Notes: generated by a model not told the origin, from the sequence alone. A DNA stretch of 64,000 nt from an uncultured Rhodospirillaceae bacterium (GCA_963974055.1 CAXBCP010000001.1:191471-255470); one strand, 5' to 3'; numbered from the stretch's first letter, positions 42,379 through 63,964 are shown. Made by a program: numbers and translations.

Positions 42379-42630
42379 TCACGCGGCCAGCTTCTGGTCC
42401 ACGAATTCGGTCAGGCTGCCGACGGATTCAAATGATTCGGCCGAAATTTCGTCGTCTTCGACGAATATATCGAATTGTTCTTCCAGCGCCGTGATCACCG
42501 TGACGACGGCCATCGAGTCGAGTTCGGCTATACTGCCGAGCAGCGGCGTGGATGCCGTGAAATTGTCGACCCTGTCTCCGAGTTGAAGGGTTTCCCCCAA
42601 CACCTGCTTCACGACGTCGATAGTTGCCAT
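42379..42630 (-). CDS. acyl carrier protein
   Basis: 83 aa. The phosphopantetheine attachment motif is LGSIAELDSMAVV (DSM variant of DSL). Four-helix ACP-like composition. Confidence 0.75.
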   Translation of the reverse strand: MATIDVVKQVLGETLQLGDRVDNFTASTPLLGSIAELDSMAVVTVITALEEQFDIFVEDDEISAESFESVGSLTEFVDQKLAA

Positions 42631-42753
42631 TACATTTGCCCCGTACGCATAAATTCATCATTTCAATCAGGTCTTTATATTCCACGCGCGGCGTCTGGAC
42701 AAAGACCAATCGTGGTATCCTTACCGTTATCGGAGCGATCATCGGGAACTTTC

Positions 42754-48233: not shown

Positions 48234-48299
48234 TCGTTTGCTTTTTGGGGCTATTATGCAGCCCGACATTTGGTGAGTTACGTTTGGTCGCGACAAAAA

Positions 48300-48935
48300 A
48301 TGGTGGGCGAAATGTTGTGGAATAGGTTTGGCGGAGCGCTGATGGTGCTGTGCGTGGCGGCTCTGGCAGGCTGTTCCTCGCTTGAGGAACTTCCGACGGC
48401 AAAGCCCGTTTCCGAGACGGAAGAGCTCGAGACCGAATACCGGATCGGCTCCGACGATTCGCTTCAGATATTCGTCTGGCGGAACCCGGAACTGTCGAAC
48501 AGCGTTGCGGTGCGTCCCGACGGCAAGATAACTATTCCGTTGATCGAGGACCTGCCTGCGACCGGCAAGACGCCGACCGAGCTGGCCCGCGATATCGAGA
48601 AACAGCTCAGCGTTTATATTCAGGACCCCATCGTCACCGTCATTATGCGGGGATTTGTCGGTCTGCCGAAGGACAGGGTCCGGGTCGTCGGCGAAGCGGC
48701 GCAGCCCCAGGCGCTGCCATACCGGTCGACGATGACGTTGCTCGATATCATGATCTCCGTCGGCGGGCTTACCGATTTTGCCGATGGCAACCGCGCCACC
48801 ATATCGCGGCTGGTCGACGAGGACTTGAAGCAGTTCCGGGTGCGGATCGACGACCTGCTTCGCGCCGGCGACATGTCGGCGAATGTCCGGATCATGCCGG
48901 GCGACGTTATCGTTATCCCCGAAGCGTGGTTCTGA
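48300..48935 (+). CDS. polysaccharide export outer-membrane lipoprotein (Wza/EpsE-like, PEP-CTERM-locus type)
   Basis: Lipoprotein signal ...VLCVAALAGC. Poly_export motif YRIGSDDSLQIFVW...PDGKITIPLI. A SLBB domain follows. Start could be ATG 48300 or 48312. Confidence 0.8.
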   Translation: MVGEMLWNRFGGALMVLCVAALAGCSSLEELPTAKPVSETEELETEYRIGSDDSLQIFVWRNPELSNSVAVRPDGKITIPLIEDLPATGKTPTELARDIEKQLSVYIQDPIVTVIMRGFVGLPKDRVRVVGEAAQPQALPYRSTMTLLDIMISVGGLTDFADGNRATISRLVDEDLKQFRVRIDDLLRAGDMSANVRIMPGDVIVIPEAWF

Positions 48936-49428
48936 TCCGACAGGACGGTGCCGTTGGCTGCAAAAATGTTGCAGTTTGTTGCAGCGATATCCATCTCCCA
49001 TTCTGCGCGGCTTTCCGTTTGCATATATATTACATGATTGGAAATTGTGTCCTGACGGTGAAAGTTGCATAAGCTGTTGATAAACAACAATATTCTGGGG
49101 CTGTTGGCTACCGCCCCGGCGCGGCGTTCCGGCCGGCCGCGGGGGCGACCGTCTCTCTTCATGGTTAACGGCGGCCCGATCATGTTATTGAATTTGTAGA
49201 GAATTGTTGCTAGTTTACGAATTGTAGGGTGATAGTGGGTTAGATGTGGACAGCTATCTATCTAGGTGAACTGGGCGCTGGCTGAATATCGGCGGCGCTC
49301 GCGTATTTGAGTAGGCAATGTGGTGTGTAGAGTGTCTGGGATCCGCGTATTGCGAATGAATGGGCCACGGAAGCAAGGCGTCCGTCGGTCGGCAGTTGTC
49401 TTAAGCCGTAAGTGGGGGGGGCACGTAG
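48936..49428. promoter_or_regulatory. 493-bp AT-rich intergenic region upstream of epsF with direct repeats (candidate regulatory region)
   Basis: GTTGCAG occurs twice, 3 nt apart, at 48964-48980. A TTGCATATATATTACATGA element lies at 49017-49035. Direct repeats GAATTTGTAGAG and GAATTGTAGGG occur at 49190-49201 and 49219-49229. A G8 tract precedes the epsF ATG. Confidence 0.3.
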
Positions 49429-51051
49429 ATGAGTGAATTATACGTACAAATCCTCGCTTATCTTACGTCTATCTGGCGCAGGCGGTGGTATGCGCTCGCA
49501 ATTTCTTGGCTGGTCTGCGGTGCCGGCTGGACAATGGTTGCCGGCCTTCCCGACAAGTATGAATCCCAGGCCCGTGTTTATGTCGACATGGATACGATGC
49601 TTGGCCCGCTGATGAAGGGCATCGCGGTCCAGGTCAACATGTTCCAGCAGATCGACATCATGCAGCGTACGCTGCTGAGCCGCCCCAATCTTGAAAAGGT
49701 CATTCTGATGACCGACCTCGACCTCAAGATAAAATCGGAAGGCGAGAAAGAAGCGCTGATCGAGAAACTCGCGAATTCGATTTCGATTCGCCAGCAGGGT
49801 CGCAACCTGTTCCGGGTCGCCTATGACGACCGTGAGCCCGCGATCACAAAGCGCGTCGTTCAGGCGGTGTTGCAGATTTTCGTCGAGAGTAATCTGGGGT
49901 CCAGCCGAAAGGATATGGATTCCACGCGGCGTTTCCTGTCCGACCAGATCAAGGATTACGAACGCCAGCTCGAACTTGCGGAAAACAAACTCGCGACCTT
50001 CAAACGCAAAAATCTCGGCATGCTCCCCGGCGAGGGAAACTATTATTCGCACATGCAGGCCATGCGGGCGCAGCACAAGCGTACCGAAGCCCAGATTGCG
50101 GAGGCATCGACCGTTCGCGACGAACTGAAGCAGCAACTGACTTCTGTGCCGCAGTTTCTCGAACTCGCGGGCGGCATGCCCGATATCGCGCTTGCGTCCT
50201 CTGCGGGGGAAGGTCCCGAATCGGATACCCAGATCAGGATCTTCGAGTTGCAGAAGGTCGTCGACAATCTGTTGACGCGCTACACCGACAAACATCCCGA
50301 TGTGGCAACCACGATCAAGCGGCTTGAGGTTCTCAAGAAAGAGCTTGCCGACGAACGCAAGGCCGAATTCGGCCCGACCGATCAGGCGCCCGTCGAACAG
50401 GCGGCTGAAGCCGGCAAGAACGTGGTGCCCAATCCGGTCTACGAACAGGTCAAGATACAGCTCGTCCAGCAGGAGGCGGCGATTGCCGCGTTCAAGCGGC
50501 GCGCCGAAAAGGAAGGCGTCGACGTTAAAAAGTGGGAACAGCTGGCCGGCCGCGTGCCGCAGGTCGAGGCCGAGCTTTCCCGGCTCTCGCGCGATTACGA
50601 AATCGTCAAGAGAGGTTACGAGGAATTGCGCCAGCGGCAGGAATCTGCCCGGCTTGCTTCGGACATGGAAACAAAGGCGCAAAAGGTCCAGTTCCGCATT
50701 GTCGATCCGCCCAAGCTTCCGCTTAAGCCCAGCGGTCCCAACCGGCCTCTTTTCATGGCCGTGGTCCTTGTTGCCGGACTCGGCGCCGGACTGGCATTTG
50801 CCTTCCTGCTGGGACAGGTCAATTCGACCTTCCAGACGGTGCAGCGCCTGCGCCTGACCTTCGCTCTGCCGGTGCTGGGTTGTGTGACCGCAATTACGTC
50901 GGTCGGCGAACGCCGCCGCCGGCGTCGCGAGTTGCTCGGTTTCGGGCTGGTTGCGGCAAGCTTGATCGTTGCTTTCGGTGGGCTCCTCATGGTTGAAGTT
51001 ATGGGGGCAAATGGCTTGCTAGCGACCGTCAAGGGGCTTAGCATCGTCTAA
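49429..51051 (+). CDS. polysaccharide chain length determinant protein (Wzz/EpsF-like, PEP-CTERM locus subfamily)
   Basis: 540 aa. An N-terminal TM (WYALAISWLVCGAGWTMVAGL) is followed by a long coiled-coil periplasmic region and a C-terminal TM (LFMAVVLVAGLGAGLAFAFLLG). Confidence 0.8.
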   Translation: MSELYVQILAYLTSIWRRRWYALAISWLVCGAGWTMVAGLPDKYESQARVYVDMDTMLGPLMKGIAVQVNMFQQIDIMQRTLLSRPNLEKVILMTDLDLKIKSEGEKEALIEKLANSISIRQQGRNLFRVAYDDREPAITKRVVQAVLQIFVESNLGSSRKDMDSTRRFLSDQIKDYERQLELAENKLATFKRKNLGMLPGEGNYYSHMQAMRAQHKRTEAQIAEASTVRDELKQQLTSVPQFLELAGGMPDIALASSAGEGPESDTQIRIFELQKVVDNLLTRYTDKHPDVATTIKRLEVLKKELADERKAEFGPTDQAPVEQAAEAGKNVVPNPVYEQVKIQLVQQEAAIAAFKRRAEKEGVDVKKWEQLAGRVPQVEAELSRLSRDYEIVKRGYEELRQRQESARLASDMETKAQKVQFRIVDPPKLPLKPSGPNRPLFMAVVLVAGLGAGLAFAFLLGQVNSTFQTVQRLRLTFALPVLGCVTAITSVGERRRRRRELLGFGLVAASLIVAFGGLLMVEVMGANGLLATVKGLSIV

Positions 51052-51066
51052 CTTCGGGGTAGGCGA

Positions 51067-52905
51067 TTGACCGATAATGATTCACCGCGTCGCGGGGCGA
51101 CCGAGGGCGGAAATTCTTCTTCGCCCCCATCTTCGTCTGTTGAAAAAGCGGCCGAACGGATGACCCGTGATCCCGGGGCAGACCGGAAAACAGGCGTTGG
51201 GAACGACTCTCCTCCGCAACGGCAGAACCCGGCGAGCAGCATAGAGCGTTTTCTGGATACGGCTGACGGCGGCGTCGCCGACGAGGGGCCCTCCGGCCCG
51301 GCCCGGTTCCAGGATCCCGGCGCCGACTCGGATGTGCCCGCCCGGAACACCCACATTCCGCAGGACGAGCCCGGACCCGGTTTGGATGCCGATTCAGCAT
51401 GGCGTGGTCCTGCCGCCGCCCCGCCTCCGCCACAGGGGCTTCCGGAGCATGGACAGCCGCCGCAATATGCGCCGCCGCCCGGGGCGGGAGATTCGTCTTA
51501 TCCGCAACCCAATCCGGAATCGGTGGAGGGGCCGCCTCCCGGTGCCCGGCCTGACGAGACGCCGCCTGCCGCTCCCGATTACCCCGAACATGCTCCGGCG
51601 CAGTCACCGGTAACGGATCCCGCGGCCGCTGCCGCGGCAGCGATGACCCCCGCCGTAAAACGGAAAGGACTGCTCAGGCGTCGGAGGAAAGCGACGAAGC
51701 CCTGGCATCGCGATCATGCCGCCGACGCGGCTTCAGCGGATGAGGCCGTCGGCAGCGTCCCGCCCGGCGATCCGCGCGATGTGGCACGTTCCGGCAACCC
51801 TGCCGCTGCTGCCGCTCCGCGCCGTCGTGGGATATTCGGTCTGTTCTGGGCCATGATCCGTTTTCTTCTGATCGGTAAAAAGCGCTTAAATGCGCCCAGG
51901 CCGGCCACACCCCGCGGCACGCCGCGTCTTCCGAAATTGGGGCGGCTCCCGGGGTTGTCGCGGCTCAGGGGCATGGGTATTCCCGTTTTGGCTCTTGCGG
52001 GGCGGGTGCCCGGATTCGGAAAGTTAAGACGATCCGCGGCTTCCGCTGTTTCCGCGGTATCAGACAGCGCGTCCGGAAACCCGCGTCCCGCGCCCGTCGA
52101 AACGGCAATGCAGATCCGGCGAAACGCGGCCGGGTCGCATATTCATCGGCCGCTCGATATGAGCCGGCGCGTTGGCCGGTCGGTCGAAATCGACCTCGAA
52201 AAGATCCAGGCGGCCGGCATGGTCACGCCGTTCGGCGAACGCACGCATATCGCGGAGGAATTCCGCCTTATCAAGCGCCCGCTCCTGCTGAACGCCTTCG
52301 AAAAAGGACCCAACGCCATCCGCAACGGGAATGTCATCATGGTCGCGAGTTCGCGTTCCGGTGAAGGCAAGACGTTCATGGCGGTGAACCTCGCCATGAG
52401 CATTGCTTCTGAACGCGATCTGACGGTTCTGTTGATCGACGCCGACGTTGCGAAACCCGATATTCCGAACGTTCTCGGGTTCGAAGCCGATCTCGGCCTA
52501 GTCGATCTGATTGCCGATGACCGCATCGATATGTCCGATGTGATCATGCGAACCAATATCGAGAATCTCAGCGTGATGCCGGCCGGCCGGCCACATCACC
52601 TCGCGACGGAACTGCTGGCCAGCGAACGGATGGGCAATCTGGTATCGGAGCTTTCCCTCCGGTATCCCGAGCGTGTCGTCATTATGGATTCCCCGCCCGC
52701 ATTGCTCAGCAGCGTGGCGGGAGTTTTGGCGCTCAATGTCGGCCAGACGTTGTTCGTCGTCGAGGCCGAGCGGACCTCCCAAACGGCGGTCGATAGTGCG
52801 ATAGGTCTTGTTAGTGCTTGCAAAAACATCAACCTCTTGCTCAATAAGAGTCGCCCGCTTGGGGGCGGCGAACGTTTTGGGTCCTATCAGAACAGCTACT
52901 ATTGA
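51067..52905 (+). CDS. BY-kinase-type P-loop ATPase (EpsG-like tyrosine autokinase) with ~330-aa proline-rich insert
   Basis: TTG start with a GGGGTAGG SD. N-terminal SSVEKAAERM motif. A proline-rich low-complexity region spans roughly aa 40-370. The C-terminal kinase has Walker A SRSGEGKTF, A' VLLIDADV, Walker B VIMDSPP, and a terminal Tyr cluster YQNSYY. Confidence 0.7.
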   Translation: MTDNDSPRRGATEGGNSSSPPSSSVEKAAERMTRDPGADRKTGVGNDSPPQRQNPASSIERFLDTADGGVADEGPSGPARFQDPGADSDVPARNTHIPQDEPGPGLDADSAWRGPAAAPPPPQGLPEHGQPPQYAPPPGAGDSSYPQPNPESVEGPPPGARPDETPPAAPDYPEHAPAQSPVTDPAAAAAAAMTPAVKRKGLLRRRRKATKPWHRDHAADAASADEAVGSVPPGDPRDVARSGNPAAAAAPRRRGIFGLFWAMIRFLLIGKKRLNAPRPATPRGTPRLPKLGRLPGLSRLRGMGIPVLALAGRVPGFGKLRRSAASAVSAVSDSASGNPRPAPVETAMQIRRNAAGSHIHRPLDMSRRVGRSVEIDLEKIQAAGMVTPFGERTHIAEEFRLIKRPLLLNAFEKGPNAIRNGNVIMVASSRSGEGKTFMAVNLAMSIASERDLTVLLIDADVAKPDIPNVLGFEADLGLVDLIADDRIDMSDVIMRTNIENLSVMPAGRPHHLATELLASERMGNLVSELSLRYPERVVIMDSPPALLSSVAGVLALNVGQTLFVVEAERTSQTAVDSAIGLVSACKNINLLLNKSRPLGGGERFGSYQNSYY

Positions 52906-52932
52906 CCCGTAGCGGTTCGGGCGGAGGGTCGG

Positions 52933-54429
52933 TTGGGCGACGACGGCAAGGGATATAACAGAATCGGCACGGTCGCCTGCAGCGCCGTTGCAGTCCCTGT
53001 GCTGTTCGCAGTTTCGCTGTTGCCGACGATTTTTGCGGCGGCGCCGGCCCATGCAGGCGATTGGTCCATATCCCCTGCAATCGGCACAACGGGCACCTTT
53101 TCCGATAACGCAAATGGCGCGACGGACAGGGAAGACCGGAATTCGGATCAGCTATTTACCGTTTCGCCGGCAATCAATGTCCGGGGCAGCGGCGGGCGGG
53201 TATCGCTGAACCTCGCCTATAGCCATAACCGCTTTTATTCCCGCCAGGATACGGCGCAGGGCTCGTCGACAAACAACCTCAGTGCAAACGGCCAGGCGGA
53301 AATTTGGGAGCGCTCTGCATTCGTGAACGTGACGTCGTCGATCACCCGCCAGGTTGTCGATCCGGCAGAGTCGGTGTCGACAACGGATACCGGGTCCGAC
53401 GCGAACAGGACGACGGTCCGGACGGTGTCGATCCAGCCGTTTTTCCTGCATCATTTCGGCAACTGGCTGGAGACGGAATCGCGGACGTCGTTCAATTTCA
53501 CGCAGAGCGAATCCGATGAGATCACGAATACCGAGTCTCTCGGCGAAACATTTACCGTCAATAGCGGAAACCGGTTCACGCTGTTCACGTTCGGCGGTTC
53601 GCTGAACCGCCAGAAAGAAATACGTGCAAACGGCGAACCGCGGTCGATTTCGACCACGCTGAATACGAATTACCGGTACCAGGTCAGCCGCAAGCTGTCG
53701 TTGATCAGTTCGGTCGGCTGGGAAACCATCGACGATCCCGCGCTCAGCGAGGAGCCCAACGGCATTATCTGGGAAGTCGGGTTCTCCGCGCAGCCCAGTT
53801 CGCGGTCGTCGCTGGAATTCACGGTCGGCGACCGATTCGAAACCACGACCTACGGGTTGAGCGCAAGCTATCGCCTTTCGGTCCGTTCCAACGTTTCCGC
53901 GTCCTATAACGAATCGATCACGACGTCCCAGGAACAACTGAACGAAGACCTCAGTTTTATCGGTACCGATGCCAATGGGCAGCAGATCGACCTGCGGACA
54001 TTGCAGCCATTCGACGCGTCGGCCAGCGAACTCGGTTTCCAGACGTCCCTTTTCCGCCAGAAGGTTCTGTCGGTCGATTTCAACACAACCCGGCGCCGCG
54101 GCAGCTATTCGGCGGGATTTAACTGGGAAAGGCGGACGACCGATTCCACGGGTGTCCTCGAAAGGGTGCTGGGGATGAACCTGTCGGCATCCCGGACGCT
54201 GTCTTCACGCCTGTCGACATCGGTTTCGACCGCGCTCCGTTTTATCGACCGCGGCACCCCGGACCAGCGTGAGGATATCACCCACAGTTTAACTGGTTCC
54301 TTGACTTACCGGTTGATGGAAAATACCAATGCTGCGTTAAGTTACGCACGCAGCCAGACAAGATCGACCGAAGGCAGCAATAACTTTCGGGACAATACGG
54401 TTACAATAAACCTTACCCGCAATTTTTGA
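52933..54429 (+). CDS. outer-membrane beta-barrel protein (PEP-CTERM-locus uncharacterised porin-like family)
   Basis: TTG start with a GGAGGG SD. Signal peptide ...PTIFAAAPAHA. Amphipathic alternating beta-strand pattern rich in S/T/N. C-terminal aromatic ...INLTRNF. Confidence 0.6.
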   Translation: MGDDGKGYNRIGTVACSAVAVPVLFAVSLLPTIFAAAPAHAGDWSISPAIGTTGTFSDNANGATDREDRNSDQLFTVSPAINVRGSGGRVSLNLAYSHNRFYSRQDTAQGSSTNNLSANGQAEIWERSAFVNVTSSITRQVVDPAESVSTTDTGSDANRTTVRTVSIQPFFLHHFGNWLETESRTSFNFTQSESDEITNTESLGETFTVNSGNRFTLFTFGGSLNRQKEIRANGEPRSISTTLNTNYRYQVSRKLSLISSVGWETIDDPALSEEPNGIIWEVGFSAQPSSRSSLEFTVGDRFETTTYGLSASYRLSVRSNVSASYNESITTSQEQLNEDLSFIGTDANGQQIDLRTLQPFDASASELGFQTSLFRQKVLSVDFNTTRRRGSYSAGFNWERRTTDSTGVLERVLGMNLSASRTLSSRLSTSVSTALRFIDRGTPDQREDITHSLTGSLTYRLMENTNAALSYARSQTRSTEGSNNFRDNTVTINLTRNF

Positions 54430-54439
54430 GCGCCAGTAC

Positions 54440-55375
54440 ATGTACGCATCGCATTACAACCTTCGAGGACGGCCGTTTCAGCTAAGCCCTGATCACCGGT
54501 TCTATTATCCGAGCCGGGGCCACAAAAAAGCGATGGCCTATCTGACCTATGGCATGAACGAGCGCGACGGTTTTATCGTTATCACGGGCCATGTCGGCGC
54601 CGGCAAGACGACGATCGTCGGCCAGCTTCTGAGCCAGATCGACCAGAGCAAATTCGTGTCCGCGAATATTGTCACCACCCAGTTGGGATCCGACGATACA
54701 TTGCGCATGGTCGCGCGGGCATTCGGCCTGCCTGCCGAAAGCCGAGACAAGGCGTCGATCCTGAAAGACATTGAGGGGTTTCTTGCCGCCCGGCGCGGAG
54801 AGGGCAAGCACGTCGTGCTGGTTATCGACGAAGTCCAGAACATGCCGCTCGAGGCGATCGAAGAATTGCGGATGCTGTCGAATTTCCAGATGGACAACCG
54901 GCCGCTGGTGCAATGTTTCCTGCTCGGACAACCCGAATTCCGGGAAAAACTGGCCCGCCCCGAGATGGAGCAGATTCGACAGCGCGTTATTGCGACCTGC
55001 CATCTCGAACCCCTCGCCGCCGATGAGACAAAGGGCTATATCGAACATCGCCTGAAGCTGGTCGGCTGGGAAGGCGATCCGGAATTCACCGACGAGGCGT
55101 TCGATCGTATTCACCGGGTGACCAATGGCGTGCCGCGCCGGATCAACTCGCTCTGCGGCCGCCTGCTTTTGTATGGTTCCCTCGAAAATACGCATGTGAT
55201 CGACGATGCCGTCGTCCAGGACGTCGCGCGCGAAATCTCTGAAGAAGCCGGAACCGGTTCCGGTTATCGCCCCGCCCCTGCGCCCGGCGCATTGATAGAG
55301 GATTTCGATCCCGATGGCGGAGAATCTCTTGCCGATCTCGACCGCAGGGTTGCCGTTCTTCGCGGCGCCGGTTGA
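54440..55375 (+). CDS. ExeA-like AAA ATPase (XrtA/PEP-CTERM system-associated secretion ATPase type)
   Basis: MYASHYNLRGRPFQLSPDHRFYYPSRGHKKAMAYL...ITGHVGAGKTT (Walker A); Walker B VVLVIDEVQ. Confidence 0.8.
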   Translation: MYASHYNLRGRPFQLSPDHRFYYPSRGHKKAMAYLTYGMNERDGFIVITGHVGAGKTTIVGQLLSQIDQSKFVSANIVTTQLGSDDTLRMVARAFGLPAESRDKASILKDIEGFLAARRGEGKHVVLVIDEVQNMPLEAIEELRMLSNFQMDNRPLVQCFLLGQPEFREKLARPEMEQIRQRVIATCHLEPLAADETKGYIEHRLKLVGWEGDPEFTDEAFDRIHRVTNGVPRRINSLCGRLLLYGSLENTHVIDDAVVQDVAREISEEAGTGSGYRPAPAPGALIEDFDPDGGESLADLDRRVAVLRGAG

Positions 55376-55422
55376 GCCGGGCAGGGAACCGGCAGATAAC
55401 CTTGGCAGATCGTTCGAACGCC

Positions 55423-56241
55423 ATGACGGTCGACGTGGAAGATTATTTCCAGGTCAGCGCCTTTTCAGCCCGCATTTCGCGTGACGACTGGGGAAACCTG
55501 CCCTGTCGTGTCGAACAGAACACCAACCGGGTTCTCGACATCTTCGCCGAAGGCGGCGCCAAGGCGACTTTTTTTACACTCGGCTGGGTGGCGGAGCGCT
55601 ATCCGCAGTTGATCCGCCGTATCGCGGACGAAGGTCATGAAGTGGCAAGCCATGGAATGGCGCATTTCCGGGTTGGAGACCAGACGCCTGACCAGTTCCT
55701 TGAGGATATCTCCAAAACCCGCAAAATCCTGCAGGATGTAAGTGGCCAGCCCGTCATCGGATACCGGGCGGCCAGTTTCTCGATCGGTGTGGACACCCTG
55801 TGGGCGCATGACGTCCTGGCGGAAGCGGGGTACTCCTACAGCTCCAGCGTTTATCCGGTACGCCACGATCATTACGGGATTCCGGATGCGCCGCGGTTTC
55901 GGTATGTCCCGAATGCCGGCACGGCGCTCACCGAACTGCCGATGACTACGGTCAAGCTGTTCAACCGGAACCTGCCCTGCTCGGGCGGCGGTTTTTTCCG
56001 GCTGCTGCCCTATGGGTATTTCCGCTGGGCAATCGGCAAGGTGAACCGCGAAGAACAGCAATCGACAATATTTTATTTTCACCCCTGGGAAATCGATACC
56101 GACCAGCCGCGCCAGGACGGCCTCAGCGCGAAAACCCGTTTCCGGCATTATGTGAATATCAGCCGGATGGCACCGCGGCTGCGCAGGATGCTGAAGGATT
56201 TTTCCTGGGACCGTATGGACAGGGTCTTTGACGTCGCCTGA
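55423..56241 (+). CDS. polysaccharide deacetylase (NodB-fold, XrtA-associated type)
   Basis: Starts MTVDVEDYFQV. NodB motifs: TFFTLGWVAERYP, HEVASHGMAHF. An alternative GTG start lies at 55372. Confidence 0.8.
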   Translation: MTVDVEDYFQVSAFSARISRDDWGNLPCRVEQNTNRVLDIFAEGGAKATFFTLGWVAERYPQLIRRIADEGHEVASHGMAHFRVGDQTPDQFLEDISKTRKILQDVSGQPVIGYRAASFSIGVDTLWAHDVLAEAGYSYSSSVYPVRHDHYGIPDAPRFRYVPNAGTALTELPMTTVKLFNRNLPCSGGGFFRLLPYGYFRWAIGKVNREEQQSTIFYFHPWEIDTDQPRQDGLSAKTRFRHYVNISRMAPRLRRMLKDFSWDRMDRVFDVA

Positions 56242-56246
56242 AATGC

Positions 56247-57284
56247 ATGAGTGATTCGCTGACCGTCAAGGAACTCGACCCCGCCGGAATCGCGGCCTGG
56301 GATGCGTTCGTCGAGTCCTGTCCCGATGCGACTTTCTATCATCGCGCCGGCTGGAAAGAGGTCATCGAGAAGACGTTCGGCCACCGGTGCTATTTCCTCC
56401 AGGCGGAACGGGACGGAGAGATCAGGGGCGTGCTGCCGCTGGTGCTGGCGAAAAGCCTAATTTTCGGGAAAAGCCTTGTCTCGACCGGGTTTACCGTCGG
56501 CGGCGGTCCCGCGGTGCTCGACCGCGAGGCGCTGGCGGCGCTCGATGACAGGGCGATAGAGATTGCCGAGACCCATAATATCGATGCCATCGAATATCGC
56601 GGGAAGACGCCGCTGCACGACGACTGGGCACACAAGACCGGCCTGTATGCCGGGTTCCGGCGCGAGATCGAAAGCGACGCCGAGAAGAACATGCTCGCGA
56701 TCCCGCGCAAGCAGCGGGCGATGGTGCGCAAGGGCATAAAGACCGGGCTGGAAAGCGAAATCGAGACCGATCCCGCCCGGCTCTACCATATCTACGCGGT
56801 TAGCGTGCGGAACCTCGGCACGCCGGTATACCCGCGTCGCTATTTCGACCATTTGATGCGGGTCTTTGGCGACGTGCTCGACATCGTGACCATCACCAAG
56901 GACGGGCGTGCCGTCGCGAGTGTCCTGAATTTTTACTTCCGCGACGAAGTGCTGCCCTATTACGGCGGCGGGCTGACCGAAGCGCGTGCCCTGGCGGCGA
57001 ACGATTTCATGTACTGGGAGGTGATGCGCCGGGCCGGCGAACGCGGGTATCGCTGGTTCGATTTCGGCCGCAGCAAGGAAGGCACCGGCGCCTATTCCTT
57101 CAAGAAAAACTGGGGATTCGAGCCGGAACCGTGGACGTACGAATATTATCTCCGCACCGGCGGGGAAATTCCCGAAATCAATCCGCTGAATCCCAAATAC
57201 CGGTATTTCATTGCGGCGTGGAAGAAAATGCCTGTCGGGCTGGCCAAGCGGCTGGGACCGCTGATCGTTCGCGGAATCAGCTGA
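56247..57284 (+). CDS. FemAB-family (GNAT-fold) protein, PEP-CTERM system-associated type
   Basis: 345 aa: MSDSLTVKELDPAGIAAWDAFVESCPDATFYHRAGWKEVIEKTF... This is the characteristic FemAB-related N-terminus. Confidence 0.75.
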   Translation: MSDSLTVKELDPAGIAAWDAFVESCPDATFYHRAGWKEVIEKTFGHRCYFLQAERDGEIRGVLPLVLAKSLIFGKSLVSTGFTVGGGPAVLDREALAALDDRAIEIAETHNIDAIEYRGKTPLHDDWAHKTGLYAGFRREIESDAEKNMLAIPRKQRAMVRKGIKTGLESEIETDPARLYHIYAVSVRNLGTPVYPRRYFDHLMRVFGDVLDIVTITKDGRAVASVLNFYFRDEVLPYYGGGLTEARALAANDFMYWEVMRRAGERGYRWFDFGRSKEGTGAYSFKKNWGFEPEPWTYEYYLRTGGEIPEINPLNPKYRYFIAAWKKMPVGLAKRLGPLIVRGIS

Positions 57285-57288
57285 CCGC

Positions 57289-58527
57289 ATGCAGGATCTT
57301 CTCTTCCTTGTGCACCGGATTCCCTTTCCGCCCAATAAAGGCGACAAGATACGGTCGTGGAATATTCTCGAATATCTGGCCGGTCGGTATCGCGTTCATG
57401 TCGGCTGTTTCGTGGACGATCCGCATGACTGGCAGTTTACCGGCCGTATCGAGGATATCGCGGCGTCGACATTCTTCAGAAAACTGGACCGCCGGCGCGG
57501 GCTGGTCCGGTCTTTCGCAAACCTGCTGACCGGCGATCCACTGACCTGCGGGTATTATCGCGATCGCGCGATGGCATGCTGGGTCGATGAGACGGTGAAG
57601 CAGAACAGGATTTCACGCGTCTTCGTGTATTCGTCGTCCATGGCGCAGTATATTCCCGACAACCCGGCTGCGGACGCGCGCGTTGTCGTCGATTTCGTCG
57701 ATATCGATTCCGACAAGTGGCGGCAATATGCCGAACGGAAACCGTGGCCGATGAAACAGGTCTATGCGCGTGAAGCACGGACCCTGTTCACGGTCGAAAA
57801 ACGGGTTGCTGCCGCTGCGGATGCGGCTGTGTTCGTGTCGGAAGACGAAGCGGCTCTTTTCAGGACCATGTCGCCTGATACCGCGGCAAACGTTCATGGA
57901 ATCGCCAACGGTGTCGATTGTGTGTTTTTCGATCCCGCTTGCGGTTCCGGGTCACCCTATGATCCGGGCCAGACGACCCTCGTCTTTACAGGGGCGATGG
58001 ATTACTGGGCGAATGTCGATGCGGTCTGCTGGTTTGCAGATGATGTCTTTCCACGAATCCGCGCTGCCCTTCCGGCGTGTGAATTCGTAATTGTCGGTGC
58101 CAATCCCACGCCCGATGTCGTGAAATTGGGTACCCGGGCCGGGATTACAGTCACCGGGCGCGTCGCCGATGTCCGTCCCTATATCGTCCATGCGACAATA
58201 TCGGTCGCCCCGCTTCGGGTGGCGCGTGGTATACAGAACAAAGTACTGGAGGCGATGGCCCTTGAAAAGGCCGTCGTCGCAACGCTCCAGGCCATGGAAG
58301 GCATCGATGCGACGGATGGCGAAGAAGTCTTCGTCGCCGAAGATGCAGCCGAATTTGCTGACACCGTGCTGTCGCTGGCGGCGGCGTCAGATCGACATAT
58401 TGCCGGTGGTCGCGCGCGGCGGCGTGTGCTCGAATCCTATGGCTGGTTAACCAGTCTTCAGAAATTCGAGAGTATTTTGGAGGGTAACGCGTCGGGTGAT
58501 AAGCTCTCCGGCGTTTCAGGGAATTAG
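57289..58527 (+). CDS. GT4 glycosyltransferase (sugar transferase, PEP-CTERM/EpsH1 system-associated type)
   Basis: Starts MQDLLFLVHRIPFPPNKGDKIRSWNILEYL, characteristic of this subfamily. C-terminal donor-binding GT-B half is present. Confidence 0.8.
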   Translation: MQDLLFLVHRIPFPPNKGDKIRSWNILEYLAGRYRVHVGCFVDDPHDWQFTGRIEDIAASTFFRKLDRRRGLVRSFANLLTGDPLTCGYYRDRAMACWVDETVKQNRISRVFVYSSSMAQYIPDNPAADARVVVDFVDIDSDKWRQYAERKPWPMKQVYAREARTLFTVEKRVAAAADAAVFVSEDEAALFRTMSPDTAANVHGIANGVDCVFFDPACGSGSPYDPGQTTLVFTGAMDYWANVDAVCWFADDVFPRIRAALPACEFVIVGANPTPDVVKLGTRAGITVTGRVADVRPYIVHATISVAPLRVARGIQNKVLEAMALEKAVVATLQAMEGIDATDGEEVFVAEDAAEFADTVLSLAAASDRHIAGGRARRRVLESYGWLTSLQKFESILEGNASGDKLSGVSGN

Positions 58528-58540
58528 TAGAGTGAGTCAA

Positions 58541-60124
58541 ATGCAGTCCGGCACCGATGGCGAAGACGTCGAAGCGACCGCTTCGGCAACGGCGTCGCCT
58601 GTCAGCGATATGGCCGTTTCGGAACGATGGCGCTTGGCATTGATCGCCGTGTCGGTCGCGATCGTCGGATTGTGCGCCGTCTTCTGGGGCACCGCCAGCC
58701 AGATGGTCGAAACGTGGTACGAATCCGCGACGTTCAACCATGGCTTCATGATCGTTCCGATATGCGGCTGGCTTATCTGGGAGCGCCGGGAGGCGATCGT
58801 GAAATATGTCCCGAAACCCGATTTCCGGGGTCTTGGGATTATTGCGGTCTGCATGGTCATATGGACCGTCGCGGATGCGGCAAGCGTTCAGTCCATCATG
58901 CAGTTCGCGCTGGTCGGAATGATCCAGGGGGCCGTACTGACCGTGCTCGGCTGGCGCCTGGTCCGGGCGATGCTGTTTCCGCTCGTGTTCCTGTTTTTTG
59001 CCGTTCCGTTCGGCGACTTTCTGATTCCGACATTGCAGGACGTGACCGCGGCGATGGTCGTCGAGGGTCTGCGGATAATCGACATCCCGGTCTTTATCGA
59101 CGGCGTTTTTCTGTCGATTCCAAGCGGCAACTTCGAAGTCGCCGAGGCCTGTTCCGGGGTGCGTTTCCTTATCGCGACGATCGCGCTGGGCTGTCTGTTT
59201 GCCAATCTCAGCTTCCGCACCCCGCTGCGCAGGTCGATCATCCTGTTTCTCGCCGTCCTTGTGCCGATTGTCGCCAACGGGATTCGCGCCTTCGGCATCG
59301 TTTATATCGCACACATCACCGATCATACGGTTGCCGTCGGGGTCGATCACCTGGTGTACGGGTGGATATTCTTCGCGTTCGTCACGATCGTATTGCTGGC
59401 GATCGGGATGACGTTTCGCGAAACCGATGGCGACAATGAAATTTACATGCCGACCGACGATGACCGCGTTGCCGGCCGGTTCAGCAATCCGAAAGGGCTG
59501 ATCGCCGGTGCGGTAGCGTCTCTGGCAATTGCGGTGGTCGGTCCGGCCTATGCCGGTGTGATGCTTGAACGCGGCGTGGTAAGGGTTATTGCGCCGCTGG
59601 CGGCGCCCGCCGTCGGGAACGGCTGGGAGCCGGTCGGCAAGGCGGAGACTGCGTGGCGGCCGAAATTTATCGGCGCAGATGCCGAACTGATGACGTCGTA
59701 CCGGAAGTCGGGCGCGCGGGTGCATCTGTATATGGCCTATTACACCCATCAACGGCAGGGCGCGGAGCTCGTCAATTTCGCCAATACATCCGTCGATCGG
59801 AACTGGCAGCGGTCGGGAAGCGGATTCACCCCGGTCCAGATCGGCAGTACCGACCAGGTGGTGAAATCGACCCGGTTGCTGGGGCGCAACAGTCGTCGTC
59901 TGGTCTGGGAATGGTACTGGATCGGCGGGAATTTCACCTCGGACCGGTATTTTGCGAAGGTTTACGAAGCGATTGCCAAACTTTTCGGTCGGCACAAGGA
60001 AGCCGCGGCCATCGTCGTGGCTGCCGATTTCGACGAAAGCGTCGCCGACGCCGACCGAACCCTGCGGGACTTTCTCGCCAATCTCGGCAGCATCGAAGAG
60101 ACGCTGCATAAATCAACGCGATGA
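58541..60124 (+). CDS. xrtA: exosortase A (XrtA) fused to EpsI domain
   Basis: 8-TM exosortase domain with the conserved ATFNHGF block, the catalytic Cys motif EACSGVRFLI and Arg motif ANGIRAFG. C-terminal ~220 aa: EpsI/DUF3485-like periplasmic domain. Start ambiguous (GTG 58496 or ATG 58541). Confidence 0.8.
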   Translation: MQSGTDGEDVEATASATASPVSDMAVSERWRLALIAVSVAIVGLCAVFWGTASQMVETWYESATFNHGFMIVPICGWLIWERREAIVKYVPKPDFRGLGIIAVCMVIWTVADAASVQSIMQFALVGMIQGAVLTVLGWRLVRAMLFPLVFLFFAVPFGDFLIPTLQDVTAAMVVEGLRIIDIPVFIDGVFLSIPSGNFEVAEACSGVRFLIATIALGCLFANLSFRTPLRRSIILFLAVLVPIVANGIRAFGIVYIAHITDHTVAVGVDHLVYGWIFFAFVTIVLLAIGMTFRETDGDNEIYMPTDDDRVAGRFSNPKGLIAGAVASLAIAVVGPAYAGVMLERGVVRVIAPLAAPAVGNGWEPVGKAETAWRPKFIGADAELMTSYRKSGARVHLYMAYYTHQRQGAELVNFANTSVDRNWQRSGSGFTPVQIGSTDQVVKSTRLLGRNSRRLVWEWYWIGGNFTSDRYFAKVYEAIAKLFGRHKEAAAIVVAADFDESVADADRTLRDFLANLGSIEETLHKSTR

Positions 60125-60177: not shown

Positions 60178-62112
60178 ATGTGCGGAATTACAGGCCTGTT
60201 CGACACCGTCGGTCGCAGCGAGATCGATCGCGGTTTGTTGACGCGCATGAATGACAGCCATCGTCACAGGGGCCCGGACGGAGACGGTGTGTTCCTGGAC
60301 GACGGTATCGGCCTGGGACACCGCCGGCTTTCGATTATCGACCTTTCGGGCGGCGCGCAGCCGTTGTTCAACGAAGACGAATCCGTCGTCGTCGTCTTTA
60401 ACGGCGAGATCTATAATTTTCAGGAGCTTTCCAAGGAGCTGATCGAAGCCGGTCACCGGTTCCGGACCCACAGCGACACCGAAGTCATCGTGCATGCCTG
60501 GGAAGAATGGGGACAGGCCTGCGTCGACCGTTTCCGCGGCATGTTCGCCTTTGCGCTTTGGGACCGGAAGAAAGAAACGCTGTTCCTGGTGCGCGACCGT
60601 CTCGGGATCAAGCCCCTGTATTATGCGGTCCTCCCCAACGGGACCCTTATTTTCGGTTCCGAGCTGAAATCGCTGCTGCTGCATCCGGCCTTCGAGCGGA
60701 AACTGGACCCGACCGCGGTCGAGGAGTATTTCGCCTATGGATACGTTCCCGACCCGAAAACCATCTATGCCGGCGCGCACAAGCTTGCTCCCGGCCATCT
60801 GATCAAGTGGCGCCGGGGCGACAGCCGCCCGCGGCCGCAAAAGTACTGGGATATCAGCTTCGATCCGTCGGACCACCGGGACGAAGGCGAAATCTGCGAA
60901 GACCTGATCGAACAGATGCGCGAAGCGGTAAAACTGCGGATGATCGCCGATGTGCCGCTCGGCGCGTTCCTGTCCGGCGGGGTGGATTCCAGCGCCGTTG
61001 TCGCGATGATGGCGGGCGAGGACAGCGATCCGGTGAATTCCTGCTCGATATCCTTCGCAGACCCGAAGTTCGACGAATCCCGATATGCCCAGACGGTGGC
61101 CGACCGGTACGGAACGGATCATTTCGTCGACCAGGTCGATCCCGACGCCTTCGATCTCGTAGACCGTCTGGCGAATATGTATGACGAACCGTTCGCGGAT
61201 TCATCCGCGATGCCGACTTACCGGGTATGCGAACTGGCCCGCAAACGGGTTACCGTCGCCCTTTCCGGCGATGGCGGCGACGAAATCTTCGCCGGTTACC
61301 GCCGCTACCGATGGCATGATTATGAGGAACGGGTCAGAGGGATTTTACCCGATGCGATCCGCAAGCCGCTCTTCGGGTTTCTCGGCGCCGCCTATCCGAA
61401 AATGGATTGGGCGCCGAAACCGCTGCGGGCGAAATCGACCCTTCAGGCGATCGGGCGCGATACGGTAGGCGGTTTTTTCCACAGCGTGTCCGTGTTGTAC
61501 GACGGCGTCCGGCAGCCCATCTACAGCGATGCGTTTCGCAACGATCTCCAAGGGTACCACGCGCGGGAGGTGCTCGATAACGTCATGGCAGATGCGCCGG
61601 CCGACGACCATACGTCCCGCGTGCAATACGCCGATCTCAAGACCTATTTGCCGGGCGATATTCTGACCAAGGTCGACCGGGCGAGCATGGCACATTCGCT
61701 GGAAGTGCGTGTGCCGTTGCTCGATCACAAATTCGTCGAATGGTCGGCGCGGCTTCCGTCCGCGCTCAAGCTGCGTGGCCGCGAAGGGAAGTATATTTTC
61801 AAGAAAGCGCTGGAACCGCATCTCGGCAATGACATCCTCTACCGTTCCAAGATGGGATTTTCCGTACCGCTGGGCACCTGGTTCAGGGGACCGCTCAGGG
61901 AACGGGTCGAGACGGCGCTGTGCGGAGAGACACTGGCGGATACGGGCATGTTCGACGTAAACCAGTTGAAGACAATCGTTTCCGAGCACCAGTCGGGCGT
62001 GCGCGAACATTCTGCGGTCATGTGGGCGCTGCTGATGTTTGAGAGTTTTCTCCGGCAGGTGCACAATGAGGCTGGAATACCGGAAAATGTTTCGAACCCG
62101 GCGGATGCCTGA
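60178..62112 (+). CDS. asnB: asparagine synthase (glutamine-hydrolysing), XrtA/PEP-CTERM system amidotransferase type
   Basis: Starts MCGITGLFD with the Cys2 nucleophile. PP-loop FLSGGVDSSAV. 644 aa. Confidence 0.9.
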   Translation: MCGITGLFDTVGRSEIDRGLLTRMNDSHRHRGPDGDGVFLDDGIGLGHRRLSIIDLSGGAQPLFNEDESVVVVFNGEIYNFQELSKELIEAGHRFRTHSDTEVIVHAWEEWGQACVDRFRGMFAFALWDRKKETLFLVRDRLGIKPLYYAVLPNGTLIFGSELKSLLLHPAFERKLDPTAVEEYFAYGYVPDPKTIYAGAHKLAPGHLIKWRRGDSRPRPQKYWDISFDPSDHRDEGEICEDLIEQMREAVKLRMIADVPLGAFLSGGVDSSAVVAMMAGEDSDPVNSCSISFADPKFDESRYAQTVADRYGTDHFVDQVDPDAFDLVDRLANMYDEPFADSSAMPTYRVCELARKRVTVALSGDGGDEIFAGYRRYRWHDYEERVRGILPDAIRKPLFGFLGAAYPKMDWAPKPLRAKSTLQAIGRDTVGGFFHSVSVLYDGVRQPIYSDAFRNDLQGYHAREVLDNVMADAPADDHTSRVQYADLKTYLPGDILTKVDRASMAHSLEVRVPLLDHKFVEWSARLPSALKLRGREGKYIFKKALEPHLGNDILYRSKMGFSVPLGTWFRGPLRERVETALCGETLADTGMFDVNQLKTIVSEHQSGVREHSAVMWALLMFESFLRQVHNEAGIPENVSNPADA

Positions 62113-62967
62113 ATGACCCAAGAACTTTTCGCCACTGTTTACCGCATGTATGCGCCGTCGGCATGTCGCGCGGCGAAACTTCTTCGCCAGGTGTTGGCGG
62201 GAGCGGCGACCTGTTTGTGCATTTTGGTCGCTTCGGGGGCGCCGGTTGCCGCTGACGACGCGCTGGTGGATACGATCGTGCAGATCAAACCGAGCATTGT
62301 GGGTGTCGGCACTTTCCAGGAAATCCGCCGTCCGCCGTCCAATCTGCTTGGCACCGGTTTCAACGTGATCGACGACCGGCACATCCTGACGAATTCCCAT
62401 GTTCTGCCCAAATCGATTAAAAATTCCCGGCGCGAATATTACTGCATTTTCGTTGGCACTGGCCGAAGCGCGAAAATCGTGCGGGTCAGCGTTGTCATGC
62501 GCGACGAGGCGCATGACCTTGCGCTGCTGCGGGCGGACCGGCCCCTTACGTCCAAACCGCTCCGGTTGCGGTCGGCGGTCAACGCCAGGGAAGGGATGTC
62601 CGTGGCGTTTACCGGCTTTCCGATCGGGGCGGTGCTCGGTCTTTATCCGGTAACCCACCGCGGCATGATTTCGGCGAAAACCCCCATTGCGATTCCGCAG
62701 GCATCGCCAAAGCGGCTCGATCCCAAAATGATAAAGCGGCTGCGGGGCAGTTTCGAGGTCTTTCAACTCGACGCGACCGCCTATCCCGGCAATAGCGGCA
62801 GCCCGTTATACGACCCGAACAATGGCGACGTCGTGGGCATCGTCAGCAGCGTTTTTGTAAAGTCTTCCAAGGAAAAGGCGCTGTCCGATCCCAGCGGCAT
62901 AACCTATGCCATCCCGTCGGACGTCGCTATTCAGCTCCTGCAAAGAGCAGGTTTGCTCAAACCCTGA
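62113..62967 (+). CDS. trypsin-like (S1 family) serine protease, catalytic domain only
   Basis: Signal peptide LAGAATCLCILVASGAPVAA. Catalytic triad contexts: TNSHV (His), DLALL (Asp), GNSGSP (Ser). No PDZ domain. The ATG abuts the asnB stop. Confidence 0.75.
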   Translation: MTQELFATVYRMYAPSACRAAKLLRQVLAGAATCLCILVASGAPVAADDALVDTIVQIKPSIVGVGTFQEIRRPPSNLLGTGFNVIDDRHILTNSHVLPKSIKNSRREYYCIFVGTGRSAKIVRVSVVMRDEAHDLALLRADRPLTSKPLRLRSAVNAREGMSVAFTGFPIGAVLGLYPVTHRGMISAKTPIAIPQASPKRLDPKMIKRLRGSFEVFQLDATAYPGNSGSPLYDPNNGDVVGIVSSVFVKSSKEKALSDPSGITYAIPSDVAIQLLQRAGLLKP

Positions 62968-63010
62968 AGCATTGCGGGGCTGCCGGCCAATCGTCCAGTT
63001 CGAACCGGTA

Positions 63011-63964
63011 TCAGGCCTGTGCACTCAGCCGCCAGATAATCCAGATGATCGAAAACAGACCGAGCGCTGCCAGTGTAATCGGCGACTGGATGAACGGCAG
63101 TATGTTGTCTTCCAGAAAGGCGATGACGCGTTGCAGCGCGTTCGATTTTCCGCCGAGCTGTTTCGGCGGTTCTTTACCGCCGGCGCCGCCGGTTGTCCGC
63201 TGGACTGTGCCGGAGGGCCTCAGGGGCTGATCGCCCTGGGCGAATTTGATCGCAGTGCCCCCGTTCAGGTCTACGACGAAGAAGCTGTTATTTTCCTGCA
63301 GGTGCAACAGCGCGAAATCGCCGAATCCGGCGATCGAAAAGGTCACCATGCCGTCAGTCGTCTGTTCAGGGTTGAGAAGCGTGACGACCAGGTCGGTCAC
63401 CGTCGCATCGATCACCGAAGCGATCAGCCCGCCGCTGGCGCTTTGCCCGCCCCCGCTTTCGCCGCCCGGTGCGGCTTCGCCGGGCACGGAATTTACAAGT
63501 GCGCGCACGATATCTGCCGTCGAGCCGGTCGATTCCCCGGCCGTTGCACCGGTATTTTCCCGGGGGTCGGAAAGCGCCTGGTTTTCCGCGCCGCCGGTCA
63601 GTTCGTCACGGACCGTCCGCGTCAGGTCATTGTCCTCGGCCCCCTGCAGTCCGCTCGTGCCCTGATCGCCGATAATCGTGAAGCCGGAACCGGCCGCCCC
63701 GCCGATTTCCGTATTATTCGAGATTTCGGGCGGTGTGGCGCCCAGGCTTCCGGCGGGCGGCACCCGTGGGGCCGTCAGCGGGGCCTGAAGACCCGGTTGC
63801 GCCGATTGCAGGATTGTGGGTCCGGACAGGACGGTATTCTGAACTGCCGTAAGCATCATCGATACTGCGATCGCCTGCAGCGGGAGGATCAAACCCCGCA
63901 CCTTTAGTTTCAGCTCATTGAAAATGGCTGTAGCTGTTATTTTCGACTGGTTGTCTTGGCGCAT
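63011..63964 (-). CDS. secreted Gly/Thr/Ala-rich protein with degenerate PEP-CTERM-like C-terminal anchor (candidate exosortase substrate)
   Basis: N-terminal signal-like segment (KLKVRGLILPLQAIAVSMMLTA). Long G/T/A/S-rich low-complexity middle. C-terminus ...PFIQSPITLAALGLFSIIWIIWRLSAQA: a Pro-containing turn, a ~16-residue hydrophobic helix, then a short polar tail with a single Arg. Confidence 0.45.
   Translation of the reverse strand: MRQDNQSKITATAIFNELKLKVRGLILPLQAIAVSMMLTAVQNTVLSGPTILQSAQPGLQAPLTAPRVPPAGSLGATPPEISNNTEIGGAAGSGFTIIGDQGTSGLQGAEDNDLTRTVRDELTGGAENQALSDPRENTGATAGESTGSTADIVRALVNSVPGEAAPGGESGGGQSASGGLIASVIDATVTDLVVTLLNPEQTTDGMVTFSIAGFGDFALLHLQENNSFFVVDLNGGTAIKFAQGDQPLRPSGTVQRTTGGAGGKEPPKQLGGKSNALQRVIAFLEDNILPFIQSPITLAALGLFSIIWIIWRLSAQA

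Follow-up and report, generated by a model that had tools for sequence, protein, structure and literature searches.

A candidate inner-membrane-anchored protein family of fused XrtA-EpsI exosortase loci, with a C-terminal tail distinct from PEP-CTERM

The stretch of DNA analysed here, termed the window, comprises 64,000 nucleotides from an uncultured Rhodospirillaceae bacterium (GCA_963974055.1, CAXBCP010000001.1:191471-255470) and encodes on its minus strand, at 63011-63964, an unnamed membrane protein of 317 amino acid residues in an exosortase A (XrtA) polysaccharide locus. On balance this protein is likely to be a periplasmic accessory protein anchored in the inner membrane, and the data suggest that its family is lineage-restricted, with a single copy per locus, and belongs to a locus subtype with fused XrtA-EpsI in marine alphaproteobacterial metagenome-assembled genomes (MAGs). 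As a conserved hypothetical protein, it adds a new component to a system already known and does not define a system of another kind. Its C-terminal tail, for which the original prediction had proposed a degenerate PEP-CTERM sorting signal or else a plain transmembrane anchor, carries no PEP-CTERM signature and is not modular.

The open reading frame (ORF), which starts with ATG and ends with a TGA stop at 63011-63013, is a real gene, far beyond chance, in view of its homologs and conserved synteny, and in this respect the original prediction is confirmed. A word-indexed search of 5.8 billion proteins retrieved 27 homologs, none of which is named or contains a Pfam domain, while HMMER, run exhaustively with a family profile over 1.84 billion representatives, retrieved 73 clusters (counted at 50% identity) at E<=1e-3, and 63 members were used for family-wide alignment tests. 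The alternative, that this is a chance or shadow frame in GC-rich DNA and that the true gene is the 333-residue ORF overlapping it on the plus strand, is excluded in practice: 27 close and more than 70 distant homologs of the minus-strand product exist, and both motifs and synteny are conserved among them, whereas the plus-strand ORF would run into the 3' end of a protease gene and is rich in Arg, Pro and Gly, as antisense frames typically are.

63011..63964, minus strand: unnamed XrtA-locus membrane protein gene, 317 residues (ORF, homologs, synteny)
62906-63907, plus strand: antisense ORF, 333 residues, overlapping the 3' end of the protease gene; shadow-frame composition, not considered a gene

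The family is covered by no model in the curated libraries searched (NCBIfam release 20 and Pfam 2025); searches of Pfam, NCBIfam and PDB sequences with the protein and the 63 family members gave no meaningful match, and no fold relative of the protein was found. Single-member matches to the WLR motif membrane protein model (E 0.004) and to PGF-CTERM (E 0.024) were taken as noise. With strict patterns for the close clade, 2 of 185,579 species-representative genomes contain a family match, both being MAGs, labelled Rhodospirillaceae and Paracoccaceae, respectively. Contig scans added two loci from genome contigs and one from metagenome contigs, a small yield because the back-translated patterns used were strict. 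The protein evolves at roughly double the rate of its neighbours (26–57% versus 46–89% identity across loci), with identities of 57/41/26% compared with 77/73/46% for XrtA and 89/87/68% for the amidotransferase of the same loci.

Nearly all family clusters comprise proteins of 280–350 residues with a single common architecture. The N-terminal part consists of a signal peptide and a variable G/S/A/T/P-rich region with short conserved islands; a conserved helix and four-strand core (G.V.FS..G.G.FA...), a variable linker and a juxtamembrane helix come next, and the proteins end in the motif x-P-[ILVF]-x-[LM], which leads into a hydrophobic helix, the residues W..WR and a short, basic terminus. 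In the window protein these parts are assigned as follows.

63824..63964, minus strand: residues 1–47, putative signal peptide or signal anchor (alignment; AlphaFold2 helix 11–41)
63425..63823, minus strand: residues 48–180, mostly disordered, predicted periplasmic region with three islands (composition, conservation, predicted local distance difference test (pLDDT))
63239..63424, minus strand: residues 181–242, conserved helix and four-strand beta core (NPE..T.GMVTFSIAGFG.FALL..QE....F.VD...GTA.KF)
63086..63148, minus strand: residues 273–293, conserved juxtamembrane amphipathic helix (SNALQRV..FLE.N.LP.I.; majority frequency 0.78)
63014..63085, minus strand: residues 294–317, predicted C-terminal transmembrane module of SPIT, 16 hydrophobic residues and RLSAQA (conservation, alignment)

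The N-terminal segment contains a basic n-region (residues 1–23), an h-region (24–41) and a c-region ending in VLS|GPT, where cleavage may occur by the −3/−1 rule; the aligned family consensus ends in ...VQA|GPT, and a hydrophobic segment followed by a ...VQA|GP or ...VLS|GP site is found family-wide, as judged by eye. The signal-peptide-like character proposed earlier is thus retained, with the correction that the n-region is 23 residues long and conserved in the nearest orthologs. Similarly, the long low-complexity region described in the original prediction exists, as residues 48–180 are 50% G/T/A/S and have pLDDT values mostly below 60, but it is a mosaic in which conserved islands (48–66, 105–124 and 147–162) are split by variable linkers, and the core at 181–242 had been overlooked. 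The majority-residue frequency is 0.74–0.79 in the three islands and the core (0.79 in the core itself), compared with 0.34–0.44 in the linkers. A model built with AlphaFold2 (AF2) from the 63-sequence alignment is confident for three parts only, namely the helix 11–41, the beta core (pLDDT 83–91) and the C-terminal helices (276–316; pLDDT 84–94), the juxtamembrane part being predicted as two helices (276–287 and 289–293; pLDDT 84–90).

The C-terminus reads ...NILPFIQ-SP-ITLAALGLFSIIWIIW-RLSAQA, where S294 and P295 precede 16 hydrophobic residues (ITLAALGLFSIIWIIW) and a single arginine follows them, exactly the layout that had been described before. Ten residues of this region (S294, P295, I296, T297, L303, F304, W308, W311, R312 and S314) are invariant in the 27-sequence alignment, and both P290 and P295 are invariant in the close clade. 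The majority frequency of the tail (0.83) is the highest of the protein. The close-family motif is Q/T-S-P-I-T and that of the wider family x-P-[ILVF]-x-[LM], in which only the proline is at least 90% conserved across the 63 members; other members have HPFTL, DPLFI, SPLKL, EPLVI or NPMFI in place of SPIT, or no proline. This proline stands at the helix start in about 58 of the 63 members, counting those missed by the script and added by eye, and in most members the first charged residue follows it at a distance of 17. The uncharged stretch begins a median of seven residues before the proline and totals a median of 25, and, counted from the first charged residue beyond the helix and including it, a median of seven residues remain up to the C-terminus. 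The basic end, a single arginine in the window protein, has the family consensus R-x-x-x-R and becomes RRR or RRKV in distant members. About 92% of members have this module at their extreme C-terminus; P0062, P0076 and P0092 have 35–44 residues after the hydrophobic helix, and P0080 and P0095 likewise carry long post-helix extensions. Such extensions would not be expected of a strictly C-terminal signal. No complete homolog without the C-terminal helix occurs among the family members, and the last 45 residues behave like a single structural unit that is inherited as a whole.

Neither the whole protein nor its tail of 31–33 residues matches the PEP-CTERM hidden Markov model (HMM), TIGR02595, or any other NCBIfam C-terminal sorting model at E<=10, and none of the 63 family members matches TIGR02595 (curated cutoff 16 bits) at E<=1. 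The same search scored the tail of a neighbouring gene product in locus L008 at 20.7 bits and thus served as a positive control. A Pro-Glu-Pro motif is found in none of the 63 members, with x-E-P in a few. The neighbouring gene, which encodes a protein of 246 residues, lies between Bac_transf and a tRNA-Val gene in L008, L009 and L010 and adjoins the target homolog; it carries the canonical motif …DIPEPASFLIMAAGLLALSRRR…, and its tail also matches several PEP-CTERM family models.

L008 8604-9344, L009 214-954 and L010 4302-5042, minus strand: PEP-CTERM protein of 246 residues with the tail …DIPEPASFLIMAAGLLALSRRRVPKTF (TIGR02595 20.7 bits)

These three loci use an ordinary PEP-CTERM signal alongside the target family. 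In the clade of the window, the position between Bac_transf and tRNA-Val holds no gene of this kind. As a canonical PEP-CTERM gene adjoins the homolog, and as XrtA is canonical with its Cys, Arg and His residues intact, the local exosortase has ordinary substrates.

PEP-CTERM signals recur within a genome, with a median of eight copies carried by proteins that are otherwise unrelated. Here there is one tail per locus, with no second tail of the target type in the 64 kb of the window or across the related loci (about 190 kb), and no tail-only carrier among the 73 matches from the 1.84 billion representatives, since every match covering the tail also covers the core. A tail grafted onto an unrelated body scored 42, 54 and 89 bits at lengths of 24, 30 and 45 residues, respectively (E about 1e-5, 2e-9 and 4e-20 at that library's size). 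As all tail matches include the core and a graft would have been detected, the tail is not a module moving between proteins. One second tail of the SP[ILV]T type, at 16116-18005 on the minus strand, is coincidental, being part of a tripartite ATP-independent periplasmic (TRAP) transporter fused permease (TIGR02123). Both checks that the original prediction had proposed for a degenerate PEP-CTERM signal, scoring by the HMM and a search for other proteins ending in the same motif, thus went against it: there is no HMM match and no PEP, and in the sequences searched the tail is confined to one family. As the defining tests were run and failed, the protein is not a PEP-CTERM member.

The wider class of tripartite sorting signals is characterized by eight attributes and an exception for dedicated systems, and the motif is expected to hold at least three near-invariant residues (Haft 2023, 10.1101/2023.06.07.544157). 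In the target family SPIT is invariant in the close clade only, and family-wide just the proline reaches 90%. Homology does not start at the motif, as the 21 preceding residues are about as conserved (0.78 versus 0.83) and predicted to be helical with high confidence. A location near the C-terminus is true of most members, the five extended ones (P0062, P0076, P0092, P0080 and P0095) apart; the hydrophobic helix is present, while the basic cluster of two to five residues is represented by a single arginine in the window protein. A signal peptide is recognized by eye at the N-terminus. As regards attributes 7 and 8, all carriers of the tail are full-length homologs, and no complete homolog lacks the helix. 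XrtA-EpsI lies two to three genes away in every sufficiently long locus, which is the situation described by the dedicated-system exception.

In 14 of 15 related loci, gene tables and tblastn place the target gene in one and the same slot. It converges on one side with the end of the XrtA-EpsI/amidotransferase operon, which in some loci is extended by a trypsin-like protease gene, and is bordered on the other side by tRNA-Val and then by the divergent operon Bac_transf-PrsK-PrsR-PrsT. This slot is kept even at 23–26% identity (L008 and L010) and in the LHPFTL clade (L012); among distant family members, of which further word-indexed searches over up to 8000 candidates recovered few, the context covers four clusters (P0036, P0097, P0100 and P0101), which represent three distant clades. 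The exception is L014, a contig of 5.5 kb with a PrsT-like fragment at its edge. In this short contig (L014 1-5495), the distant member P0101 is accompanied by Acetyltransf_5/autoinducer-synthase-like, TP_methylase and ManC neighbours, without tRNA-Val. The window itself ends 36 bp upstream of the target start codon, as judged from L011, a contig of essentially the same organism with one amino acid difference in the target protein, where a stretch of 243 bp is followed by tRNA-Val and then by Bac_transf. Since L011 and 13 other loci show the XrtA system going on past the window, the target does not stand at the locus end; of the original description as convergent at the locus end, the convergence with the plus-strand gene 62113-62967 is retained, while the end is merely that of the window.

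The reading considered most probable is that of an inner-membrane-anchored accessory protein. An N-terminal signal sequence would export the protein, whose periplasmic side would consist of a flexible region with short conserved motifs and G/S/A/T/P linkers and of a small alpha/beta core, and the C-terminal module, comprising the juxtamembrane helix, the SPIT proline, the hydrophobic helix, the W..WR residues and a short end that is basic and cytoplasmic, would retain it in the inner membrane. The tail may then be an inherited, family-specific anchor, neither PEP-CTERM nor another modular sorting signal, whose helix might dock on a specific membrane partner from this locus, be it XrtA-EpsI or the machinery of polysaccharide assembly and PrsK. 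Such docking is suggested since the tail helix is conserved at the identity level. The anchor proposed as the second option of the original prediction hence fits better than the sorting signal, although it is not a plain one, being the most conserved part of the protein and running into the juxtamembrane helix. Several features weigh against this reading: the generic tripartite layout of a proline motif, a hydrophobic helix and basic residues near the C-terminus; the signal peptide, compositional bias and fast evolution of the protein; and a monocistronic gene whose 5' region exceeds 200 nt and which lies two to three genes from the exosortase. A signal peptide, biased composition and a single-gene unit with a long 5' region near the exosortase are typical of cargo (PMC1569441), and co-location of an enzyme and a single target is typical of dedicated one-to-one systems (10.1101/2023.06.07.544157). 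In addition, no fold or family match from the Pfam, NCBIfam, PDB-sequence and fold searches offers a functional handle.

The main alternative, which these features support, is a dedicated non-canonical exosortase substrate, in which a private signal (x-P-[ILVF]-x-[LM], helix and basic end) would be cleaved by XrtA-EpsI and the periplasmic part then freed or joined to polysaccharide, as in PEP-CTERM proteins but with its own motif. This is a tentative and rather unlikely alternative. It agrees with the tripartite layout and the near-invariant proline at the helix start, with the fixed 17-residue distance and the position at the extreme C-terminus in most members, with the signal peptide seen by eye, with the single-gene transcription unit and long 5' region found in most PEP-CTERM genes, with a canonical PEP-CTERM cargo gene nearby, across tRNA-Val, in L008 and L010, and with the co-location with XrtA in 14 of 15 loci, as in the exception of Haft. 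Since the link to the fused XrtA-EpsI locus is strongly conserved, a one-to-one relation is still compatible with the sequence. However, no member matches the PEP-CTERM HMM while the positive control works, one residue is near-invariant family-wide where three or more are expected, conservation runs through the motif into the upstream helix, several members have long cytoplasmic extensions, XrtA is canonical and has canonical cargo, and no conserved sigma-54 site lies upstream, unlike in most proteobacterial PEP-CTERM genes. L303, F304, W308 and W311 are moreover conserved in identity although cleavage would discard them; because residues discarded by a sortase-type reaction are so conserved, the helix is likelier to persist and pack on a partner. 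The bolder form of this proposal, that a canonical XrtA-EpsI processes a second, non-PEP signal class (x-P-[ILVF]-x-[LM], a 16-residue helix and W..WR) with the family as its dedicated cargo, is unlikely, and slightly more so. If it were true, the juxtamembrane helix would become the new C-terminus and be coupled to polysaccharide, and preparation of the acceptor might fall to the deacetylase and FemAB-like enzymes of the locus, perhaps with the use of tRNA-Val.

A further proposal, which is a special case of the anchored protein, makes the target a regulator anchored in the membrane and partnered with the PrsK/PrsR two-component system. Like the single-pass accessory proteins by which sensor kinases are tuned through helix–helix contacts, it would relay the periplasmic or extracellular polysaccharide (EPS) state to PrsK. 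The gene adjoins and is divergent from Bac_transf-PrsK-PrsR-PrsT in every long locus, with a PrsT-like fragment at the edge even in L014, the transmembrane residues are conserved, and the periplasmic part is flexible with short conserved motifs, all of which would suit such a partner. This role is nevertheless distinctly improbable and purely inferential, as the protein has no homology to known kinase accessory proteins and its adjacency to XrtA is equally strict. Because the family is much narrower than PrsK/PrsR, the target is not a general part of that circuit.

Among known systems, PEP-CTERM proteins share with the target the signal peptide, the biased and fast-evolving extracytoplasmic region, the proline motif with helix and basic residue(s), and the single-gene unit with a long 5' region inside an XrtA locus. 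Unlike them, the target has no PEP, gives 0 of 63 HMM matches and shares its tail with no unrelated protein; it is conserved upstream of the motif, has a single arginine, has some homologs extended by 35–44 residues, and lacks a conserved sigma-54 element. Dedicated systems (JDVT-CTERM/MrtJ and single-target rhombosortase or sortase pairs; Haft 2023) resemble it in having one copy per locus near the enzyme and a tripartite-like C-terminus, but theirs involve a specialised enzyme subfamily and a motif in which three or more residues are near-invariant, whereas a canonical XrtA with canonical PEP-CTERM cargo is found here and just the proline is conserved family-wide. The XrtA-associated families TIGR03015, TIGR03016, TIGR03019 and TIGR03108 are alike in their fixed position in XrtA loci and in deriving their function from context; the target differs by having no curated model, by its restriction to a few marine alphaproteobacterial MAG loci and by its roughly twofold faster evolution. 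YycH and YycI, which act with WalK, are single-pass accessory membrane proteins of sensor kinases. As is predicted for the target, proteins of this type are bitopic, with a periplasmic domain and a conserved transmembrane helix, and they too are encoded beside a sensor kinase operon, but no sequence or fold similarity is known, and their anchor is N-terminal while that of the target is C-terminal. The target thus works most like PEP-CTERM proteins without being one, and is best filed with the XrtA-associated proteins known from context only.

Exosortase systems are widespread in environmental bacteria and relevant to flocs and biofilms. The present family adds an undescribed, position-fixed membrane protein to a defined XrtA-EpsI locus subtype, and the unsupported label 'degenerate PEP-CTERM' is removed from it. 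Docking on XrtA-EpsI or PrsK, if true, would provide a handle on the organisation of this machinery, while cleavage of the tail, if true, would mean that a canonical exosortase accepts a wider range of signals.

The following neighbouring genes of the window belong to the locus.

62113..62967, plus strand: trypsin-like serine protease, 284 residues, secreted, with a signal peptide and without PDZ (PF13365 3e-22; GNSG motif)
60178..62112, plus strand: XrtA/PEP-CTERM system amidotransferase (TIGR03108 1068 bits, cutoff 817)
58496..60124, plus strand: exosortase A fused to an EpsI domain (TIGR03109 331.8 bits, cutoff 208; TIGR02914 124.7 bits)
48270..58527, plus strand: rest of the XrtA polysaccharide operon (NCBIfam matches above curated cutoffs)

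The XrtA-EpsI fusion named in the original prediction is corroborated, as TIGR03109 (residues 52–309) and TIGR02914 (residues 371–532) match a single ORF. A Cys/Arg/His triad has been proposed for exosortase (PMC1569441), and the putative catalytic residues Cys219, Arg264 (NGIR) and His285 (HLVYG) are present in this enzyme. The operon at 48270-58527 encodes an export protein, a chain-length determinant, a tyrosine autokinase, a TIGR03016 outer-membrane protein, a TIGR03015 ATPase, a TIGR03006 deacetylase, a TIGR03019 FemAB-like protein and an stp1 glycosyltransferase. The protease contains an intact triad (His96/Asp135/Ser228) and is found in the subclade of L001, L002, L003, L006, L007, L011 and L015, while L004, L005, L008 and L010 lack it. 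Its gene is appended after the amidotransferase, and the protein is not among the curated XrtA-associated families.

A tRNA-Val gene is embedded in the XrtA system in 11 loci, between Bac_transf-PrsK-PrsR-PrsT and the target, with the anticodon TAC (CAC in L001).

L011 836-910, minus strand (approximately 64207-64281 if the window were extended): tRNA-Val
L001 9657-9731; L002 9639-9713; L004 and L005 9680-9754; L006 1570-1644: tRNA-Val
L007 9581-9655; L008 9690-9764; L010 5399-5473; L012 4459-4533; L013 356-430: tRNA-Val

The gene is kept even where the target homolog is about 25% identical, and its sequence is 97% conserved. It has the look of an ordinary elongator tRNA, with G18G19, a TPsiC loop and an encoded CCA, and scores 60–62 bits in Rfam. 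Enzymes of the FemAB family use aminoacyl-tRNA donors, and it is conceivable, though unsupported, that this tRNA-Val is a donor for the FemAB-family protein of the locus. A role as a special non-ribosomal donor found no support, as the sequence looks like that of an ordinary elongator tRNA. A literature search on XrtW/EpsI and on FemAB with exosortase found nothing useful.

In proteobacteria, PEP-CTERM genes are mostly preceded by a PrsR site and a sigma-54 (−24/−12) promoter. A sigma-54-like element TGGC-N8-TGC (TGGCTTTCATAATGCA) is located in L011 at 964-978 (about 64139-64153), 173 nt upstream of the target start codon, and was rejected as a promoter of the target, since it is found in L011 only and is not conserved in seven other loci. 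A TTTACA-like upstream element is the promoter of the divergent tRNA-Val, scans for consensus sigma-70 promoters and terminators upstream were uninformative, and in the 243-nt 5' region Rfam detects the tRNA alone, with no riboswitch or leader RNA. In the close clade, an AT-rich, partly palindromic box (CGAACTATTTATAGTAAC; L011 1070-1086, window equivalent 64031-64047) is followed about 15 nt later by CTATCTT (L011 1102-1108, window equivalent 64009-64015), some 45–85 nt upstream of the target start. A promoter or operator function is conceivable for this box, which matches neither sigma-54, nor consensus sigma-70, nor an Rfam family. It occurs at equivalent positions in L001, L002, L006, L007 and L015 and is absent in L004, L005, L008 and L010.

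Upstream of the operon, at 45666-48233 on the plus strand, lies a second and divergent asparagine-synthase-like gene, which scores 254 bits with TIGR03108, below the cutoff; its true start is probably near 46350, as the TIGR03108 match begins at ORF residue 319. Two sizeable ORFs that immediately precede the XrtA-associated genes (38986-40683, plus strand, 565 residues; 42475-43461, plus strand, 328 residues) have no NCBIfam match at E<=1e-4. The region 43520-46353 (plus strand), which precedes the asparagine-synthase-like gene, encodes an exosortase-A-associated acyl-CoA ligase (TIGR03098) and a pyridoxal phosphate (PLP) decarboxylase (TIGR03099). As these TIGR03098, TIGR03099 and TIGR03108-like genes precede the operon, the XrtA-related part of the window extends at least from about 43.5 to 64 kb.

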